A stretch of 64,000 nucleotides of DNA from Escherichia phage vB_EcoS_HZ_ZJUN2, in sequence record PP216084; one strand, written 5' to 3'. Below the pieces are notes generated by a model. It had not been told where the DNA came from and made no database searches. It was given only the letters and a program-made list of their open reading frames with translations. Below, in pieces: positions 20,170 to 27,065 of the stretch; within the stretch, counting starts at the first letter, position 1; each line of letters begins with the position of its first letter. A program made the position numbers and the translations under genes.

Positions 20170-21567
20170 ATGTCTTTACAACTATTACGTAATACTCGAA
20201 TCTTCGTGTCTACGGTTAAGACCGGTCACAATAAGACCAACACGCAAGAGATTCTAGTTCAGGATGATATTTCTTGGGGTCAGGACAGTAACTCAACAGA
20301 TATTACTGTTAATGAAGCTGGTCCGCGTCCAACTCGTGGTTCTAAACGTTTTAACGACTCTTTAAACGCAGCTGAGTGGAGTTTCTCTACTTATATCCTG
20401 CCATATAAAGATAAAACTACTAATAAACAGATTGTTCCTGACTATATGTTATGGCACGCTCTTTCTAGTGGTAAAGCTCTTAACCTAGAAGGTGATACAG
20501 GGGCACATAATAACGAAACCAATTTTATGGTTAACTTTAAAGATAATGCGTACCACGAGCTGGCAATGCTGCATATCTACATCCTGACTGACAAAGCATG
20601 GAGTTATATCGATTCCTGTCAGATTAATCAGGCAGAAGTTAACGTTGATATTGAGGATATTGGTCGTGTAACTTGGTCTGGTAATGGTAATCAGCTTATT
20701 CCTCTGGATGCGCAACCATTTGATCCAGATGAGGTAGGTATTGATGATGAAACTTATATGACTATTCAGAGTTCTTATATCAAGAACAAATTGACTATCC
20801 TGAAAATTAAGGATATGGATTCTGGCAAAGCATACGATATTCCTATTACTGGTGGTACTTTCACTATTAATAACAACATCACGTACCTAACCCCGAATAT
20901 TATGTCTCGTGTTAATATTCCAATTGGTTCCTTTACTGGTGCTTTTGAATTAACTGGTTCATTAACTGCTTATCTGAATGATAAATCTCTTGGTTCTATG
21001 GAGCTGTACAAAGACCTTATCAAAACTCTGAAGGTAGTTAACCGCTTCGAAATTGCTCTAGTACTTGGTGGTGAATACGATGAAGAACGTCCTGCGGCTA
21101 TTCTGGTAGCTAAACAAGCACACGTTAACATTCCTACTATTGAAACTGATGATGTACTTGGTACTTCAGTAGAGTTTAAAGCTATTCCATCTGATCTGGA
21201 TGCTGGTGATGAAGGTTACTTGGGCTTTTCTAGTAAATATACCAAAACAACTATTAATAACTTGATTGTTAATGGTGATGGTGCTACTGATGCTGTAACT
21301 GCAATTACTGTTAAATCTGCTGGTCAGGCTACTTCTGTTCGGACTGGACAAACTCTTCTGATGAGCGTTGAAGTTACTCCTTCTTCCGCAAAGAATAAGG
21401 AAGTTACTTGGGCTATCACTGCCGGTGATGCAGCTACAATTGATCCAGAATCTGGCCTATTAACTGCGGACACCACTAAAACTGGTGAAGTAACTGTAGA
21501 AGCTACTGCTAAAGATGGTTCTGGAGTTAAAGGTACTAAACAGATTACTGTAACAGCAGGTGGCTAA
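20170..21567 (+). CDS. Major tail tube protein pb6-like, 465 aa, C-terminal Ig-like (Big_2-type) domain
   Basis: C-terminal segment VTAITVKSAGQATSVRTGQTLLMSVEVTPSSAKNKEVTWAI typical of Big_2; size fits T5 pb6. Confidence 0.7.
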   Translation: MSLQLLRNTRIFVSTVKTGHNKTNTQEILVQDDISWGQDSNSTDITVNEAGPRPTRGSKRFNDSLNAAEWSFSTYILPYKDKTTNKQIVPDYMLWHALSSGKALNLEGDTGAHNNETNFMVNFKDNAYHELAMLHIYILTDKAWSYIDSCQINQAEVNVDIEDIGRVTWSGNGNQLIPLDAQPFDPDEVGIDDETYMTIQSSYIKNKLTILKIKDMDSGKAYDIPITGGTFTINNNITYLTPNIMSRVNIPIGSFTGAFELTGSLTAYLNDKSLGSMELYKDLIKTLKVVNRFEIALVLGGEYDEERPAAILVAKQAHVNIPTIETDDVLGTSVEFKAIPSDLDAGDEGYLGFSSKYTKTTINNLIVNGDGATDAVTAITVKSAGQATSVRTGQTLLMSVEVTPSSAKNKEVTWAITAGDAATIDPESGLLTADTTKTGEVTVEATAKDGSGVKGTKQITVTAGG

Positions 21568-21571
21568 TTAA

Positions 21572-22471
21572 ATGTACTACTCTCTAATGAGAGAGTCAAA
21601 AGTTATAGTTGAGTATGATGGTAGGGCATTTCATTTTGATGCCCTATCAAACTATGATATACAGACTTCCTACGAGGAATTCAAGACTCTTCGTAGGACT
21701 GTTCATCGTAGAACTAACTATGCAGACTCTATTATAAATGCTCAAACTCCCTCTTCTATCTCTCTAGCAGTAAATTTTAGTAATACTCTTACTGAAGCTA
21801 ACTTCTTTGAATGGTTAGGTTTTGATAGAAAAGGTAATACTTTCTTACTCCCACTATATAGTAGTAATATTGAACCTATTATGTTCAATATCTATATAGT
21901 AAATAAAGATAATAACTGTGTATATTTTGAAAACTGTTATGTATCTACGGTAGATTTTTCTTTAGATAAGAACATACCAATTCTTAATGTTGGTATTGAA
22001 TCAGGAAAATTTTCCGAAGTATCTACATATAGAGAAGCAGCTTCTATTATACAGGGTGAAGTAATGTCTTACAGCCCAGTAATAGCTTCTACTAATGGCA
22101 GCATCTTACCCGGTCTTATTTCTGCCTCTTTATCCTTCCAACAGCAGTGCTCCTGGAGAGAGGATAAGAGTGTTTTTGATATAAATAAAATTTATAATAA
22201 TAAAAGAGCCTATGTAACTGAAATGAATGCTTCGGCAACCATTTCTCTATACTACTTAAAACGTTTTGCAGGAGATATGGTTTATAATGTAGAACCGGAG
22301 ATAGATGTACCTTTAACGATAAGAAATAATAATATTTCTATAGATTTTCCTTCAGCACGTATTACAAAACGCCTAGAGTTCTCAGATGTGTATAGAGTTG
22401 AGTGGGATATTATACCTACTGCTTCTTCAGACCCAGTGAGAATAGATTTCTTTGGAGAAATTAAAAAATGA
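21572..22471 (+). CDS. Hypothetical tail-associated protein (p140-like), 299 aa
   Basis: Synteny between tail tube and chaperone genes. Confidence 0.4.
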   Translation: MYYSLMRESKVIVEYDGRAFHFDALSNYDIQTSYEEFKTLRRTVHRRTNYADSIINAQTPSSISLAVNFSNTLTEANFFEWLGFDRKGNTFLLPLYSSNIEPIMFNIYIVNKDNNCVYFENCYVSTVDFSLDKNIPILNVGIESGKFSEVSTYREAASIIQGEVMSYSPVIASTNGSILPGLISASLSFQQQCSWREDKSVFDINKIYNNKRAYVTEMNASATISLYYLKRFAGDMVYNVEPEIDVPLTIRNNNISIDFPSARITKRLEFSDVYRVEWDIIPTASSDPVRIDFFGEIKK

Positions 22472-22872
22472 TTAATTTAAAAGATATTACTCTTGATACT
22501 CGTACTATTACTCTTTCCTACCCAGGTATGCCGAACTTTAAACTAGAACTTAACTATATGTCTCGTGCTACCTCTAAACGTGTTATTTCCTCTGCTAAAC
22601 GCGATGAATGGGTTAACGGTACTTTGGTTCAGGTACAGGATGATGATAAGTTTATTGAAGCTTTCGTCGATGCTGCGATTAAAGGTTGGACTGGTTTGAC
22701 TGTAGGTGACGTTGAAAAACTGATGCTGATTGAAGCAGATGCTGATCCTGAGACTGAAGTTCCTTTTAGCCGCGATAATGCTGTAATGCTCATGCAGAAC
22801 TCTGCTGCGTTTGATTCTTGGATCAACCAGACAGTGTTCCACTTAGACACTTTTCGTAGCCCAAAAGCGTAA
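22468..22872 (+). CDS. Tail assembly chaperone (G-like), 134 aa
   Basis: Acidic small protein immediately upstream of tape measure region; ends in A-rich stretch CCCAAAAGCGTAA. Confidence 0.5.
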   Translation: MINLKDITLDTRTITLSYPGMPNFKLELNYMSRATSKRVISSAKRDEWVNGTLVQVQDDDKFIEAFVDAAIKGWTGLTVGDVEKLMLIEADADPETEVPFSRDNAVMLMQNSAAFDSWINQTVFHLDTFRSPKA

Positions 22873-22933
22873 AGAACTCCTAGATGCTGTTGCTGATTTT
22901 GCAGATAAATGTATTAAAAGCTCAGCATCTAAA

Positions 22934-23302
22934 ATGACCAAACAACAATATTTAATACTTTGTGAGTCAATGGGTATAGAACCTGATCCTAAGGCTATGC
23001 CTGTTGAACTCGAAGATTTTCCACCTATTGTATCTATTAGTATGAATATTTATAACAGTCTAATTGATTGTTTCATACCAGGTGACTTTCCTATTTTTAT
23101 AGGTAAAGATAAAGCTGCTCTAGGTGTTTTATTTGATATTTATGGGATTACTGATCCTATAGAAAAAGAATTTGTTCTACACATTATCAATATATTTGAT
23201 GCTAAAGCTGTAGATGCTGCACGTAAACGTGCTGAGAAGCATAAACCGCAAAACGGGAGAATTCCTAACGTTAAGCCACATGCTAAATCTCGAGCACGGT
23301 AA
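22934..23302 (+). CDS. Tail assembly chaperone extension (T-like), 122 aa; may be expressed as a +1 frameshift fusion
   Basis: ORF is in the +1 frame relative to 22468-22872 and is open from 22847, overlapping the upstream gene by 23 nt. Confidence 0.4.
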   Translation: MTKQQYLILCESMGIEPDPKAMPVELEDFPPIVSISMNIYNSLIDCFIPGDFPIFIGKDKAALGVLFDIYGITDPIEKEFVLHIINIFDAKAVDAARKRAEKHKPQNGRIPNVKPHAKSRAR

Positions 23303-23337
23303 AAGTTTCCTCCAATGGGCGTTCCACGATGAGGCTT

Positions 23338-23369
23338 GGCTCTGGGTGATTTGCCCAGAGCCTTTTTTA
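23338..23369 (+). terminator. Intrinsic terminator before tape measure gene
   Basis: ggctctggg-tgatttg-cccagagcc then TTTTTT; followed by the conserved TTTATTGGGAAAATAAA element. Confidence 0.65.
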
Positions 23370-23384
23370 TTGGGAAAATAAAAC

Positions 23385-26300
23385 ATGACTGATAAGCTAA
23401 TACGAGAATTACTAATAGACGTTAAACAGAAGGGGGCAACTCGTACTGCAAAGTCTATTGAAAACGTATCTGATGCGTTGGAAAACGCTGCTGCTGCTTC
23501 CGAACTGACAAATGAGCAGTTAGGTAAAATGCCCAAAACCCTTTACTCCATTGAGAGGGCAGCGGATAGAGCAGCGAAAAGTCTTACTAAAATGCAGGCA
23601 AGCAGAGGTATGCTTAGTGTTACTAAATCTATAAATGATATAGGAGCTAAGTTAGATGATCTCGCTATTACAATGATTGAAGTAGCAGATAAGTTAGAAG
23701 TCGGATTTGATGGGGTTTCTAGATCTGTTAAAACAATGGGTAATGATGTTGCAGCTGCAACAGAAAAAGTCCAGGATAGATTATATGATACTAATAGAGC
23801 GTTAGGTGGCACAGCTAGAGGTTTTAACGACACTGCTGGTGCCGCAACTAGGGCTTCTAGAGCTATAGGTAATACTTCTGGTTCAGCTCGTGGCGCTACT
23901 CGTGATTTTGCAGCAATGGCTAAAGTAGGTGGTAGTTTACCTATACTATACGCAGCTTTTGCTTCCAACATCTTCGTTTTGCAATCTGCATTCGAACAAC
24001 TTAAACTAGGTGATCAGCTAAATCGTCTAGAAAAATTTGGTGTTATAGTAGGTACTCAGACAGGTACTCCTGTTCAGTCCCTTGCTAGATCACTACAAGA
24101 GGCAGCTGGCTATGCAATCTCTTTTGAAGAAGCTATGAGGCAAGCATCCTCAGCGTCCGCTTATGGATTTGATGCTGAACAACTTAATAAATTTGGTTTA
24201 GTAGCTCGTCGTGCTGCTGCTGTTCTTGGCGTTGATATGACTGATGCACTTAATCGTGTAATTAAGGGTGTATCTAAACAAGAAATCGAACTTCTGGATG
24301 AGCTTGGTGTTACTATTCGTCTTAACGATGCTTATGCTGATTACGTTAAACAGCTAAATGCTGCAAACACAGGTATAACGTATAATATTAATAGCCTTAC
24401 TACCTTCCAGAAACAGCAAGCGTATGCTAATGCTGTTATAGCAGAATCTACTAAACGTTTTGGTTACTTAGATGAAGTTTTACGTGCTACTCCGTGGGAA
24501 CAGTTTGCTGCTAACGCAGATGCTGCACTAAGAACAATACAACAAGCTGCTGCTAAGTACTTAGGTCCAGTAATTGATGCTATCAACACAGTATTTTATA
24601 CTTCTCAAGCTTCTGTATCTGCTGAAGCAGCTAGAGCTCAAGAAAAAACTAATAGACAGATAGATCCTACCAATGTTGGTGCTGTTGCTCTAAGTTTGGC
24701 CGCTTCTGAAGAAGGTTATAATAAAGCTCTAGATATGTATAAGGAATCTCTTGATAAGCGTAATAAGCTAAAATCTGAGTTTGATAAACGAATGGAACAA
24801 GCAGATTTCTATACAAAATTAGCTATACGTCAAGTTGGTGAAGGTATTCCTGTTGGTCTTGCAGCAGCAGGTGCTTCGGAAGCTAATAAACAATTTGTAG
24901 CAGAAACTGCAGCTATGGGTCTACAAGTAGCTAGACTTGGTAAGGAAGTAGAGGATTCTACAGAGAACCTCAATGCTTGGAAATCAGCGTATCAAGCTGC
25001 TGGGGCTGCTGCTGCAAAGGCTAGTCCAGAGTTTCAGAAGCAAATTAATCTACAGAGAGATACTACTGATCCTGGTGCTGTATACGATTTTAATTCTACT
25101 GTATTAAAAGGTCTAACTGAGCAACAGAAAGCGTACAATCAGACCAAGAAAACTGCTAGTGACTTAGCTAATGATATACAGAACGTTGCTCAGAATACAG
25201 ATACCGCTGCTAAAACTAGTGCTGCTTTAGCAGATGCTATAAAAAACATAGAATCTCTATCTCTAGGTACTGGTAAGAGTGCTGATGAGTACGTTAAAAA
25301 TCTCAATCTAGGCTACAATACTCTGTCTGAAATGAAAACTGCGTCTCAGGCCTTATCTGAATATGTTAAACTAACTGGTAATGAAACTAAAAATCAGCTA
25401 GCAGTTCAACAGAAGATAGCTGATGTATACAACCAAACTAAGGATAAAGAAAAGGCACAGGAAGCAGGTAGACGTTTAGAGCTCCAACAGTTAGAAGAGC
25501 AAGAAGCTGCTTTACGCCGTGTTCTTCAAACAAACCAGGGGAATAAGGCTGTTGAGAAAGAAATTGAAAAAATCCAGCTGGAGAAACTTAAACTTACCAA
25601 TCAGGGTATGGAAGCCCAGAAGAAGGTCAAGGATTACACAGATAAAATTCTTGGTGTAGACCGTGAGATAGCTCTTCTGAATGACCGTACTATGACTAGC
25701 ACTCAGTATAGATTAGCACAGTTAAGGTTAGAACTAACCATAGAGGAAGAAAAATACGAGTGGTACTTAAAACAAGCGGATAAACAAAAAGAGGCAGAAC
25801 AGTCTAGACGTGCTCAAGCACAGATAAGTAGAGAGTTATGGGAAGCAGAGAAACAAGCTACTGCTACTCATGTATCCGCCCTTATGGATGCCTTAGAGGT
25901 TAGCCAAACGCAGAGAAATGTCACTGGTCAGTCACAGATTCTCACTGAAAGGTTATCTATTCTGCAGCAGCAGCTGGAACTGTCTAAAGGTAATACTGAA
26001 GAAGAAATTAAATATCGTAATGAGATTTATAAAACTTCAGCAGCCTTAGAGCAGCTTAGAAAACAGAGAGATAGCCAGATGCAGCAACAGGTAGGGTCTT
26101 CTGTAGGTGCTGTATATACTCCTACAACTGGACTATCTGGAGAAGATAAAGATTTTGCTGATATGGGAAATAGAATGGCTTCTTATGATCAGGCAATTTC
26201 TAAACTATCTGAGCTAAACTCTGAAGCAACCGCTGTAGCTCAAAGCATGGGTAACCTAACCAATGCTATGATTCAATTCTCTCAGGGATCTTTAGATACT

Positions 26301-27065
26301 ACATCTATGATTGCTTCCGGTATGCAGACTGTGGCCTCTATGATTCAATATAGTACTAGTCAACAGGTTAGTGCAATTGATCAGGCTATTGCAGCAGAGC
26401 AGAAACGAGATGGTAAATCTGAAGCATCTAAAGCTAAACTGAAAAAGTTAGAAGCTGAAAAGCTGAAGATTCAACAAGACGCAGCTAAGAAGCAGATTAT
26501 CATCCAAACTGCAGTAGCTGTAATGCAGGCGGCAACAGCTGTTCCATACCCGTTCTCTATTCCTCTGATGGTAGCGGCAGGTTTAGCAGGTGCTCTGGCC
26601 CTCGCCCAAGCATCCTCTGCATCGAGTATGTCGAGTATTGCTGATTCGGGAGCTGATACAACTAGTTACTTAACCTTAGGAGAGCGTCAAAAGAATATAG
26701 ATGTGTCCATGTCTGCTAATGCAGGTGAACTATCTTATATTCGTGGCGATCAAGGTATAGGTAGTGCCAACTCTTTCGTTCCTCGTGCTGAGGGTGGTAA
26801 TATGTACCCAGGGGTTAGTTACCAAATGGGTGAACATGGTACAGAAGTAGTTACCCCTATGGTTCCTATGAAAGCTACACCTAATGATGAGCTAAAAACC
26901 TCATCTAACTCAACTTCAGGAAGACCTATCATCCTGAATATTAGTGCTATGGATGCTGCAAGTTTTAGAGAGTTTGCTTCTAGTAATAGTGGTGCTCTAA
27001 GAGACGCAGTAGAATTAGCTCTGAATGAGAACGGTGCTAGTCTGAAAACATTAGGAAATTATTAA
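23385..27065 (+). CDS. Tape measure protein pb2-like, 1226 aa
   Basis: Very long Ala/Gln/Lys-rich coiled-coil ORF with hydrophobic C-terminal segment; position between chaperones and distal tail protein. Confidence 0.85.
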   Translation: MTDKLIRELLIDVKQKGATRTAKSIENVSDALENAAAASELTNEQLGKMPKTLYSIERAADRAAKSLTKMQASRGMLSVTKSINDIGAKLDDLAITMIEVADKLEVGFDGVSRSVKTMGNDVAAATEKVQDRLYDTNRALGGTARGFNDTAGAATRASRAIGNTSGSARGATRDFAAMAKVGGSLPILYAAFASNIFVLQSAFEQLKLGDQLNRLEKFGVIVGTQTGTPVQSLARSLQEAAGYAISFEEAMRQASSASAYGFDAEQLNKFGLVARRAAAVLGVDMTDALNRVIKGVSKQEIELLDELGVTIRLNDAYADYVKQLNAANTGITYNINSLTTFQKQQAYANAVIAESTKRFGYLDEVLRATPWEQFAANADAALRTIQQAAAKYLGPVIDAINTVFYTSQASVSAEAARAQEKTNRQIDPTNVGAVALSLAASEEGYNKALDMYKESLDKRNKLKSEFDKRMEQADFYTKLAIRQVGEGIPVGLAAAGASEANKQFVAETAAMGLQVARLGKEVEDSTENLNAWKSAYQAAGAAAAKASPEFQKQINLQRDTTDPGAVYDFNSTVLKGLTEQQKAYNQTKKTASDLANDIQNVAQNTDTAAKTSAALADAIKNIESLSLGTGKSADEYVKNLNLGYNTLSEMKTASQALSEYVKLTGNETKNQLAVQQKIADVYNQTKDKEKAQEAGRRLELQQLEEQEAALRRVLQTNQGNKAVEKEIEKIQLEKLKLTNQGMEAQKKVKDYTDKILGVDREIALLNDRTMTSTQYRLAQLRLELTIEEEKYEWYLKQADKQKEAEQSRRAQAQISRELWEAEKQATATHVSALMDALEVSQTQRNVTGQSQILTERLSILQQQLELSKGNTEEEIKYRNEIYKTSAALEQLRKQRDSQMQQQVGSSVGAVYTPTTGLSGEDKDFADMGNRMASYDQAISKLSELNSEATAVAQSMGNLTNAMIQFSQGSLDTTSMIASGMQTVASMIQYSTSQQVSAIDQAIAAEQKRDGKSEASKAKLKKLEAEKLKIQQDAAKKQIIIQTAVAVMQAATAVPYPFSIPLMVAAGLAGALALAQASSASSMSSIADSGADTTSYLTLGERQKNIDVSMSANAGELSYIRGDQGIGSANSFVPRAEGGNMYPGVSYQMGEHGTEVVTPMVPMKATPNDELKTSSNSTSGRPIILNISAMDAASFREFASSNSGALRDAVELALNENGASLKTLGNY

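Follow-up and report, generated by a model that had tools for sequence, protein, structure and literature searches.

The window, a 64,000-nt stretch of sequence record PP216084, is T5-like (Tequintavirus), with 98.7% identity to Salmonella phage HMD-7, also a Tequintavirus. All features described here lie on the plus strand. Between the genes for the tail tube protein pb6 (20170–21567) and the tape measure protein pb2 (23385–27065) are found p140 (21572–22471) and two small genes, G and T, and this order is identical in T5 and six other genera. The p140 product, a baseplate tube protein of 299 aa (Pfam PF23779 Baseplate_Tube_p140, E = 5.8e-140; PHROG 3889), is mentioned as context. ORF1 (22468–22872), the equivalent of T5.143/T5p139, encodes a G-type tail assembly chaperone of 134 aa and 15.1 kDa according to PHROG 313 and the T5 annotation. 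The T segment (22856–23302, 148 codons plus stop) is delimited by its +1-frame translation, and its 3′ two thirds are the annotated T5.142/T5p138. Gene order together with PHROG 313 and PHROG 3914 bears out the earlier note in taking the two ORFs for a tail assembly chaperone pair 5′ of the tape measure gene. The pb2 protein itself (1226 aa; Pfam TMP_N PF24164 and TMP_C PF24165; T5 annotation) is presumed to be the client of the G/T chaperones. A terminator-like hairpin with a T-run (23338–23371) separates the chaperone genes from the tape measure gene, and the annotations of T5, Erwinia phage KEY and Klebsiella phage Spivey likewise show a terminator here. Every GenBank record inspected has G and T annotated as two separate genes. 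A search for tRNA genes found 0 in the window, and involvement of a phage tRNA was rejected for that reason.

ORF1 occupies the 1 mod 3 frame and runs from ATG 22468 to TAA 22870–22872. The downstream frame (2 mod 3; +1 or −2 relative to ORF1) reads open from 22847 to TAA 23300–23302, as had been described, and the overlap of 23 nt claimed for the two ORFs is confirmed (23 sense nt; 26 with the stop). A TAG in the +1 frame at 22844–22846 sets the 5′ limit for any productive shift. It lies two codons before the slip codon proposed below, and in 72 of 115 loci a +1-frame stop stands exactly two codons 5′ of the corresponding TTT. The first ATG, GTG or TTG of the downstream frame is ATG 22934, 87 nt into the open frame. 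Between TAG 22844 and ATG 22934 the +1 frame holds neither a start codon nor a Shine–Dalgarno sequence, so there is no entry to T except from ORF1. As the claimed joining of the two ORFs implies, T can be reached from ORF1 solely through a +1 (or −2) frame change, and comparison with relatives shows that translation in this frame includes the stretch before the annotated ATG. By itself, an 87-nt open stretch with no start codon is within chance for AT-rich DNA; the comparative signal exceeds chance.

Profile comparisons point to the two ORFs as parts of one protein. ORF1 matches PHROG 313 (E = 1.3e-33) over profile positions 12–139 of 258, and the T segment matches PHROG 3914 as well as positions 170–258 of PHROG 313. 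When joined, the putative 277-aa protein aligns to PHROG 313 as one continuous match (residues 1–262 to profile positions 12–258, 182.8 bits). The matches to PHROG 313 and 3914 are strong, and both labels, ‘tail assembly chaperone’, are annotation-level only. Any +1 fusion has 277 aa; the fusion had been put at about 275 aa, and its possibility stands while its length is corrected. The predicted fusion is collinear with the chaperone family profile, with the fused proteins of other genera and with those of a sister clade in which T occupies the −1 frame. Searches of Pfam gave no family above threshold for G or T, and the sister clade showed a sub-threshold match to PF08890 Phage_TAC_5 (E = 0.03). 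Searching the PDB by sequence revealed no solved-structure relative of G/T, and a word-indexed protein search with the fused protein returned 0 matches.

The substitution pattern among 31 distinct T5-like sequences was examined across the overlap and beyond it. The 61 nt between ORF1 and ATG 22934 (22873–22933), an ‘intergenic gap’ in current annotations, are coding in the +1 frame. In the +1 frame 16 of their 21 variable sites are synonymous and 5 are non-synonymous, while 0/21 are synonymous in each other frame (binomial P = 1.2e-6); the changes show three-base periodicity and include a double change of a Ser codon, AGC to TCC, at 22919–22920. Upstream of 22849 the changes are synonymous in frame 0, and ORF1 as a whole has 75 synonymous and 45 non-synonymous changes. 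The block 22849–22872 is nearly invariant (1 variable site of 21, P = 0.006). Its sole variable site, 22861 (C/T, 17 vs 14 sequences), leaves the amino acid unchanged in the +1 frame but gives Pro or Ser in frame 0. Coding selection in the +1 frame is thus seen upstream of any start codon, and the peptide encoded by the gap is conserved across genera.

These data bear on the view that no recoding takes place, in which G and T are separate proteins, T starts at ATG 22934 (22934–22936, the GenBank start of the second chaperone gene) or by re-initiation, and the open frame before the ATG is incidental. The two-gene annotation of every inspected record agrees with it, as do the invariance of ATG 22934 within the T5-like group and the common occurrence of Met at that column in both clades. 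A genome paper (PMC6256483) cites Zivanovic 2014 for T5 as a phage with no predicted frameshift signal, and in a library of 1.84 billion representative proteins all 147 matches to the extended T part are called as separate, nearly all short, proteins, with no natural in-frame G–T fusion among them. Nevertheless, gene finders yield short ORF calls for any frameshifted T part, and an incidental open frame would not account for the coding signature and conserved peptide of the gap. No Shine–Dalgarno-like sequence lies 5′ of ATG 22934, where a predicted hairpin covers the spot. In the alignment, Klebsiella, Serratia and Vibrio phages have Ile, Val or Phe at this ATG, and annotated T starts vary between genera. 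The frame offset, moreover, is kept in 116 +1 and 49 −1 loci, whose slippery motifs fall on one homologous codon. Separate expression of T is accordingly judged unlikely, and ATG 22934 is probably an internal Met codon of a fused product, GT.

Conservation of the frame arrangement was assessed across T5-type loci, a set including Klebsiella, Serratia, Erwinia, Vibrio and Aeromonas phages and a marine metagenomic clade, down to ~30% identity. T lies in the +1 frame in 116/116 unique loci, and an in-frame T occurs in none. The phage collection holds 909 matching records, and 59/59 of the sampled whole-locus records align in two pieces. In the sister clade (49 unique loci) a canonical X_XXY_YYZ heptamer is present in 47/49 (G_GGA_AAC, A_AAT_TTT/C), sitting on Asn–Phe codons homologous to Thr128–Phe129 of T5. 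The G sequences become unalignable directly after Phe–Arg, with tails of 0–18 further residues, and the +1 frame is collinear from there. The mixed-genus alignment contained no conserved stretch usable for widening the locus set. A G–T-type fusion through +1 frameshifting is strongly supported by these comparisons.

An in-frame TTT_CGN is the only element common to all of the overlaps, being found in 115/115 unique +1 loci, which are phylogenetically related and amount to ~14 clearly separate lineages, not 115 independent trials. In the window this is UUU_CGU at 22852–22857 (Phe129–Arg130 of G), the proposed +1 shift site. The motif reads TTTCGT in 101 loci, TTTCGA in 8 and TTTCGC in 6. Phe129 is TTT in every locus, whereas five other conserved Phe columns have ~30% TTC (15–40%). 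Similarly, Arg130 is always CGN and never AGR, whereas the control residue Arg33 is AGA or AGG in 33/110 (30%). The base following TTT is C throughout, giving a UUU-then-pyrimidine sequence at 22852–22855. Codon choice at the two residues demonstrates synonymous-site constraint on TTT_CGN, and a conserved shift-prone sequence is found in the overlaps of the +1 loci as in those of the −1 clade. In Vibrio phage 70E34-1b (L061) the overlap is just 14 nt (AAC AAC TTT CGT TAA), which confines the shift site to AAC AAC TTT CGT. Across loci the G stop follows 1–19 sense codons past TTT (median ~18; five in this window). Of the 781 Arg codons in the window 333 are CGU, more than any other, and a slow A-site codon, as in PA-X or Ty-type +1 shifting, is therefore not evident. 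The motif is also in frame at eight other places in window ORFs, so that it cannot give a high shift rate alone.

The earlier note had placed the slip at a different codon, with tRNA-Lys moving from AAA to AAG at 22864–22867; TTT_CGN lies 12 nt 5′ of that site. The A-rich stretch that it described before the TAA is present (CCCAAAAGCG, 22860–22869), but the division CCC-AAA-AGC-G matches neither of the two frames concerned. In frame 0 the codons are AGC CCA AAA GCG TAA and in the +1 frame GCC CAA AAG CGT AAA, with AAA 22864–22866 a Lys codon of ORF1 followed by G. A slip here, whether as the sole site or as a second, T5-like-specific site, would yield the same fusion with the junction ...DTFRSPK/RKELL... 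and an expected peptide DTFRSPKRKELL. AAA_G is in frame and within the overlap in 31/31 T5-like sequences, and Klebsiella phages have AAA_T or AAA_C. E. coli has a single tRNA-Lys, which decodes AAA as well as AAG and whose shiftiness is known (PMC5009743), and the invariance of 22849–22872 might be taken as a trace of the site; dual coding alone, however, predicts low variability there. The candidate is confined to T5-like and Klebsiella phages. It is missing from overlaps with the same +1 architecture in Serratia phage Kamaji (AAG_T), Vibrio phages Luma, 70E34-1b and PG07, Erwinia phage KEY and several metagenomic relatives (AAA_G-free overlaps include L058, L059, L061, L101, L146 and L147), and the overlap of L061 stops short of the homologous position. 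The C/T polymorphism at 22861 is silent in the +1 frame, and the +1 peptide VAQK aligns with V[AQT]Q of other genera, while the frame-0 tails are unalignable. The overlap and +1 offset are kept in relatives, but the AAA_G motif is not, and a shift at AAA_G appears quite improbable.

A −2 shift at the same place as the proposed +1 slip, of the type suggested for phage Mu, would lead to the same frame and cannot be distinguished from it by DNA. In this case tRNA-Phe would move from UUU to CUU (22850–22852) to give ...DTFFVAQK... and a protein of 278 aa; in the CTTTTC of T5-like phages two of the three positions would re-pair. Such re-pairing is nevertheless not conserved, as the two bases before TTT differ by lineage (CT, CA, AC, GG, GA, AT), whereas +1 re-pairing to TTC is perfect in 115/115 loci. 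The −2 event is considered very unlikely. A non-ribosomal change of frame, whether by slippage of the polymerase on the T-run during transcription or by an error of sequencing or assembly that splits a continuous gene, might be suggested by the four T’s of T5-like phages. Many lineages have only three T’s at the site, far too few for polymerase slippage, and the same offset in >900 independently sequenced genomes rules out error; this explanation is hardly credible.

Other routes and stimulatory elements were also considered. The only −1 heptamer nearby, C_CCA_AAA at 22860–22866, was rejected, as the frame it opens closes after five codons and its sequence is polymorphic. Readthrough of the G stop was likewise rejected because frame 0 stops again after seven sense codons (TGA 22894–22896). 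A stem-loop is predicted at 22880–22931 (MFE −23.8 kcal/mol for 22840–22960, z −2.8), its 3′ arm ending 2 nt before ATG 22934. It is also predicted in the relative L025 and is limited to T5-like and Epseptimavirus-type sequences, not other genera. The stem-loop lies 25 nt from the shift site, too great a distance for a classical stimulator, and was rejected as such. Comparison across genera revealed neither a conserved RNA structure downstream nor a conserved Shine–Dalgarno-like stimulator at a useful distance.

A +1 slip at UUU_CGU, producing a G/GT pair with a GT of 277 residues, is therefore the reading that we hold with good confidence on comparative grounds. Most ribosomes would read ORF1 to its stop and produce G. 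A minority would move one base forward with peptidyl-tRNA-Phe on UUU 22852–22854, the GAA anticodon re-pairing on UUC 22853–22855 and a G–U wobble being replaced by a G–C pair. Decoding would resume at GUA 22856 and continue in the +1 frame to 23299. The predicted GT comprises residues 1–129 of G followed by T (277 aa, 31.1 kDa) with the junction ...HLDTF/VAQKRKELL..., and the junction peptide expected from the UUU_C shift is DTFVAQKRKELL. We infer that the shift takes place on the ribosome, at this UUU, and as +1 rather than −2. On the model of lambda gpG/gpGT, the G part common to both products may cover the tape measure protein pb2, the T part of GT, the rare product, may recruit the tail tube protein pb6, and frameshifting would set the G:GT ratio. 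Shift efficiency and the division of labor between G and T are likewise presumed here.

In lambda the slippery heptamer is G_GGA_AAG, and the sister clade carries the lambda-type heptamer G_GGA_AAC. The T5-type locus resembles that of lambda in having two overlapping ORFs directly 5′ of the tape measure gene, with a predicted long product that shares the N-terminal part of the short one. The gpG/gpGT system and the conserved G–T frameshift of long-tailed phages are credited in PMC5009743 to Levin 1993 and to Xu, Hendrix and Duda 2004, 2013 and 2014. In contrast to lambda, the T5-type shift would be +1 instead of −1 and would use a single shifty codon, UUU_C, in place of a tandem heptamer. The T5-type proteins have no detectable similarity to lambda G or T and no match to a Pfam TAC family.

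The direction of the shift deserves comment, as a +1 event had been called unusual. Forward shifting is indeed the minority direction but it recurs: the PRFect positives, taken from SEA-PHAGES annotations, comprise 350 forward and 2368 backward cases (total 2718; PMC10885494), and a +1 G–T shift has been proposed for the archaeal virus HSTV-2 (PMC5009743). These cases and the −2 shift of Mu indicate that the direction of the G–T shift is not fixed, although the chaperone sequences are unrelated. Each forward motif in PRFect combines one base repeated three or four times with a rarer A-site codon (PMC10885494). The downstream frame at the T5-type locus is +1 and does not follow the canonical −1 direction. 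A −1 shift on a tandem heptamer is typical and not obligatory, as illustrated by Mu (−2) and by forward cases in the SEA-PHAGES-derived set of PRFect.

The +1 cassette of influenza A PA-X is UCC_UUU_CGU (Firth et al. 2012, as given in PMC5009743). Like it, the phage site has the dicodon UUU_CGU, allows P-site tRNA-Phe to re-pair on UUC and involves no stop codon; the relative L095 even has UCU_UUU_CGU. The PA-X shift is attributed to slow decoding of CGU, which is rare in vertebrate cells. By contrast, CGU is the most used Arg codon in the phage, the upstream codon varies (AAC, ACT, AAT and others) and translation is bacterial. The prfB site (RF2; CUU_UGA) is similar in that the P-site tRNA slips one base forward onto a codon that it can also read. 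It differs in its slow A-site stop codon and upstream Shine–Dalgarno sequence, whereas the T5-type site has a sense Arg codon and no conserved element of this kind. Phage +1 shifts at a stop codon occur at CCC_UAA/UGA in SPP1 and PSA.

The closest bacterial comparison is YopN–TyeA of Yersinia. [quoted passage not shown] Both systems are enterobacterial and would involve +1 shifting on UUU-pyrimidine with no adjacent stop (PMC5009743; PMC4914553), and in Yersinia two adjacent ORFs are fused into a functional low-level hybrid. The gene family and role are different, and the Yersinia shift is experimentally supported while the T5-type site is proposed by comparison only.

It appears rather probable, if with less assurance than for the locus itself, that the whole T5 family, comprising >900 sequenced genomes and a large marine metagenomic clade, makes GT by an unannotated +1 shift on a bare UUU_CGN, with no rare codon, stop or conserved stimulator. 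The homologous Phe codon would shift −1 in the sister lineage, the direction having switched and the position been kept. No report of a T5-family chaperone frameshift was found in the literature searched, and the searchable literature yielded no proteomic or genetic data on T5p138/T5p139. If the proposal is true, the view of T5 as a phage with no chaperone frameshift, cited above, would be overturned, and in >900 GenBank records the second chaperone gene would be truncated and the 61-nt intergenic gap false. Gene finders that now search only for −1 heptamers could be given a simple rule, namely to look at the 3′ end of the gene that precedes the tape measure gene for TTT_CGN in frame and an open +1 frame.

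T5 serves as a model siphophage, and active research is devoted to the structure and assembly of its tail. Should GT exist, the chaperone set in assembly models, as in annotation pipelines, is incomplete. An E. coli phage would also supply, in UUU_CGN, a naturally selected and minimal +1 site that is genetically tractable, and the sister clade, shifting −1 at the homologous codon, would provide a built-in evolutionary control for the direction and efficiency of the shift.

The phage is T5-like: over the 1.2 kb around the locus it shares 98.7% identity with Salmonella phage HMD-7 (Tequintavirus), and this region has matches of at least 80% identity in 444 phage records. The genes for the tail tube protein pb6 (20170-21567) and the baseplate tube protein p140 (21572-22471; Pfam PF23779) precede ORF1, the tail assembly chaperone ORF encoding G (22468-22872), and the gene for the tape measure protein pb2 follows at 23385-27065. 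An earlier note had described the ORF2 frame (T) as open at 22847-23302, in +1 relative to ORF1 and overlapping an A-rich stretch at its end; the open frame was confirmed, and coordinates, overlap and stretch all proved correct on reading the sequence. In frame 0 the 3' end of ORF1 reads ...CAC TTA GAC ACT TTT CGT AGC CCA AAA GCG TAA, while the +1 frame reads TAG ACA CTT TTC GTA GCC CAA AAG CGT AAA GAA... The first possible start in the +1 frame is ATG 22934, and no Shine-Dalgarno-like sequence was found upstream of it.

Downstream of the chaperone genes and ahead of the tape measure gene is a strong terminator-like hairpin (23338-23362; 11 bp, 7 GC), which together with a T-run covers 23338-23371; the placement is odd in that it separates a chaperone from its client gene. 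A terminator is annotated at the same position in T5, Erwinia phage KEY and Klebsiella phage Spivey. In T5 (NC_005859, L063) the second chaperone gene and pb2 are also separated by a gene for an HNH-type endonuclease (T5.141 / T5p137; L063 721-1473), where the window has only an 82-nt spacer (23303-23384); the endonuclease is thus a variable insertion.

ORF1 and ORF2 matched the 258-position 'tail assembly chaperone' profile PHROG 313 on positions 12-139 and 170-258, respectively, and the fused sequence gave one unbroken match (residues 1-262 to positions 12-258, 182.8 bits). Pfam and PDB searches for the chaperone proteins returned no match. Two separate genes are annotated in all GenBank records examined, including T5 (T5.143/T5.142, also T5p139/T5p138), with start points that vary between genera. 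The fused chaperone had zero matches in a word-indexed collection of 5.8 billion proteins despite more than 900 phage genomes encoding close relatives; the collection or its index seems to be without this family. Two large proteins, P0006 (1455 aa) and P0147 (554 aa), showed eight and four separate matches to T residues 90-130 or 36-77, which could mean that a T-like motif is repeated in unrelated proteins.

Synonymous and non-synonymous changes were counted per frame in a gap-free alignment of 31 distinct T5-like sequences. For frames 0, +1 and +2, the counts were 75/45, 9/111 and 4/116 in the ORF1 body, and 4/98, 63/39 and 3/99 in the annotated ORF2 body. In the 61 nt annotated as intergenic (22873-22933), every third base takes most of the changes and the counts were 0/21, 16/5 and 0/21 (binomial P 1.2e-6 for the +1 signal; Fisher's test against frame 0, 2.4e-7); one change is a double substitution in a Ser codon, AGC to TCC. 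These counts and P values show the 'gap' to be coding in +1, with a signal at least equal to that of the annotated genes. TAG 22844 closes this frame, which offers no start until 22934, so ribosomes can reach it only from ORF1. The constraint changes frame between 22848 and 22861: the five variable sites within 22830-22848 are all silent in frame 0, and the sole variable site of 22849-22872, at 22861 (C in 17 sequences, T in 14), is silent in +1 (GCC/GCT) and Pro/Ser in frame 0. A hairpin with a 9-bp stem is predicted inside the 'gap' at 22880-22931 (z -2.8), its 3' arm ending 2 nt upstream of ATG 22934; an Epseptimavirus-type relative retains it, other genera do not.

The earlier note had placed the slip at AAA_G 22864-22867, with tRNA-Lys moving from AAA to AAG. 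This position could not be upheld, the tetranucleotide being absent from the overlaps of several relatives with T in the +1 frame, which end in ATC AAG TCG TAA (Serratia phage Kamaji), TTT CGA AAC TGA (Vibrio phage Luma), TTT CGT TAA (Vibrio phage 70E34-1b), TTT CGA GGC TAA (Vibrio phage PG07) and TTT CGT AGC TAA (Erwinia phage KEY); other relatives lack it as well. With its 14-nt overlap, 70E34-1b confines the site to AAC AAC TTT CGT. The sole element common to every overlap is an in-frame TTT_CGN, found as TTTCGT in 101, TTTCGA in 8 and TTTCGC in 6 of 115 loci; these are the 116 +1 loci minus an error-ridden Aeromonas AhSzq-1 record, itself with TTT_CGA at the right place. Conservation among relatives thus holds for the overlap and TTT_CGN (115/115) but not for AAA_G.

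Conserved column Phe129 is TTT in 115/115 loci, against 15-40% TTC (30% overall) in the five other conserved Phe columns of G; Arg130 is CGN in 115/115, against AGA/AGG in 33/110 at conserved column Arg33. These controls place the constraint on TTT_CGN at the nucleotide level, beyond the amino acid. The codon preceding TTT is variable (AAC, ACT, AAT, TCA, GGG, TCT, CGA, ACC), as is the codon after CGN. The G proteins cease to align directly after Phe-Arg, beyond which they extend by 0-18 residues, and the +1 frame is alignable from exactly that point (FVAQK, FVTQN, FVQSS, FETER and others). TTT alone allows re-pairing in the +1 frame (to TTC) in all lineages; re-pairing at -2 is not conserved. 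In 72/115 loci a +1-frame stop stands exactly two codons upstream of TTT (TTA GAC, TTA AAC or TTA GAG read as TAG/TAA; 22844-22846 here), limiting productive shifting to a very short stretch. The ORF1 frame contains a heptamer of formally canonical -1 type, C_CCA_AAA, at 22860-22866. Its -1 frame runs into a stop after five codons and 14/31 relatives have T as the first base of CCA, so it is probably meaningless.

On comparative sequence evidence, the best model, and a rather probable one, has peptidyl-tRNA-Phe slipping by +1 on UUU_C at 22852-22855. The products would be G (134 aa, 15.1 kDa) and, as for any +1 fusion here, a GT of 277 aa (31.1 kDa), joined between DTF and VAQK. E. coli tRNA-Phe has the anticodon GAA and reads UUU through G-U wobble, so a slide to UUC would better the pairing. 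A passage of PMC5009743 describes UUU_Ynn as especially prone to +1 shifting in bacteria and as the likely YopN-TyeA fusion site in Yersinia, and, for influenza A PA-X, names UCC_UUU_CGU the minimal +1 cassette; the PA-X motif is the same as that of the chaperone site. The window's long ORFs contain TTT before C or T less often than expected (46 observed against 71 expected; 51 against 74) and TTC in these contexts more often (68 against 47; 73 against 49), which fits a general tendency to avoid the shift-prone UUU_Y context. Some observations speak against a strong signal: CGT leads among the Arg codons of the window, TTT_CGN occurs in frame at eight further places there, and no conserved stimulatory structure or Shine-Dalgarno-like element was found. 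A low shift efficiency at the T5-type site would fit the lambda paradigm, for which a passage of PMC5009743 gives a G:GT ratio of about 30:1.

Loci were drawn from IMG/VR and annotated phage records, and the deduplicated set with both parts numbered 165. T lies in the +1 frame in 116, which come from T5-like, Epseptimavirus-type, Klebsiella (Sugarlandvirus), Serratia, Erwinia, Vibrio (four genera) and Aeromonas phages and a large marine metagenomic clade, with identities down to about 30%. This arrangement and the coding 'gap' bear out the kind of event proposed earlier, a +1 G-T fusion; nevertheless, its slip site was misplaced. The other 49 loci, a sister clade at 34-40% identity, have T in the -1 frame, and the in-frame arrangement was found in 0/165. 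A canonical heptamer is present in the overlap of 47/49 -1 loci (G_GGA_AAC in 32, A_AAT_TTT or A_AAT_TTC in 15). The fused proteins of the two clades align collinearly through the junction, and the Asn-Phe heptamer codons align with T5 Thr128-Phe129. In a tblastn search the fused protein matched 909 phage records; all whole-locus records among the sampled matches (59/59) align in two pieces. This matches what has been described for the conserved G-T frameshift, in which the architecture persists as the sequence changes; here the direction changes as well.

The -1 sister clade (L032-L056, L096-L145) consists of uncultured IMG/VR metagenomic contigs; two of them, L106 and L139, lack the canonical heptamer and have GC TTT TAC and G AAT TTT. 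In the marine clade (L149-L228; IMG/VR marine metagenomes, the longest contigs reaching about 58 kb) the +1 TTT_CGT architecture recurs, but the G tails are long, with 17-19 codons following TTT. About 16 nt upstream of TTT this clade has a block, GAGGTAGTC, whose conservation extends to synonymous sites. In Aeromonas phage AhSzq-1 (L062; NC_047949, 'partial genome') the chaperone region is without annotation and several stops break the G frame, which suggests sequence of poor quality; at L062:1708 both the TTT_CGA motif and the T part in +1 can nonetheless be made out.

For Mu, a -2 shift was reportedly proposed by Xu and colleagues in 2004. Forward chaperone frameshifts as such are already known: among the positives of PRFect, a set built on SEA-PHAGES annotations, 350 are forward and 2368 backward (PMC10885494), and a passage of PMC5009743 has a +1 chaperone shift proposed for HSTV-2. 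The literature searched yielded no account of +1 frameshifting in the chaperone genes of T5 or the Demerecviridae; a passage of PMC6256483 cites Zivanovic et al. 2014 for T5 being without a predicted frameshift signal. The T5-type site is of some added interest in that it would belong to a model phage said to be without a frameshift signal, has a motif equal to that of PA-X, and has a sister clade that would shift the opposite way at the same codon.
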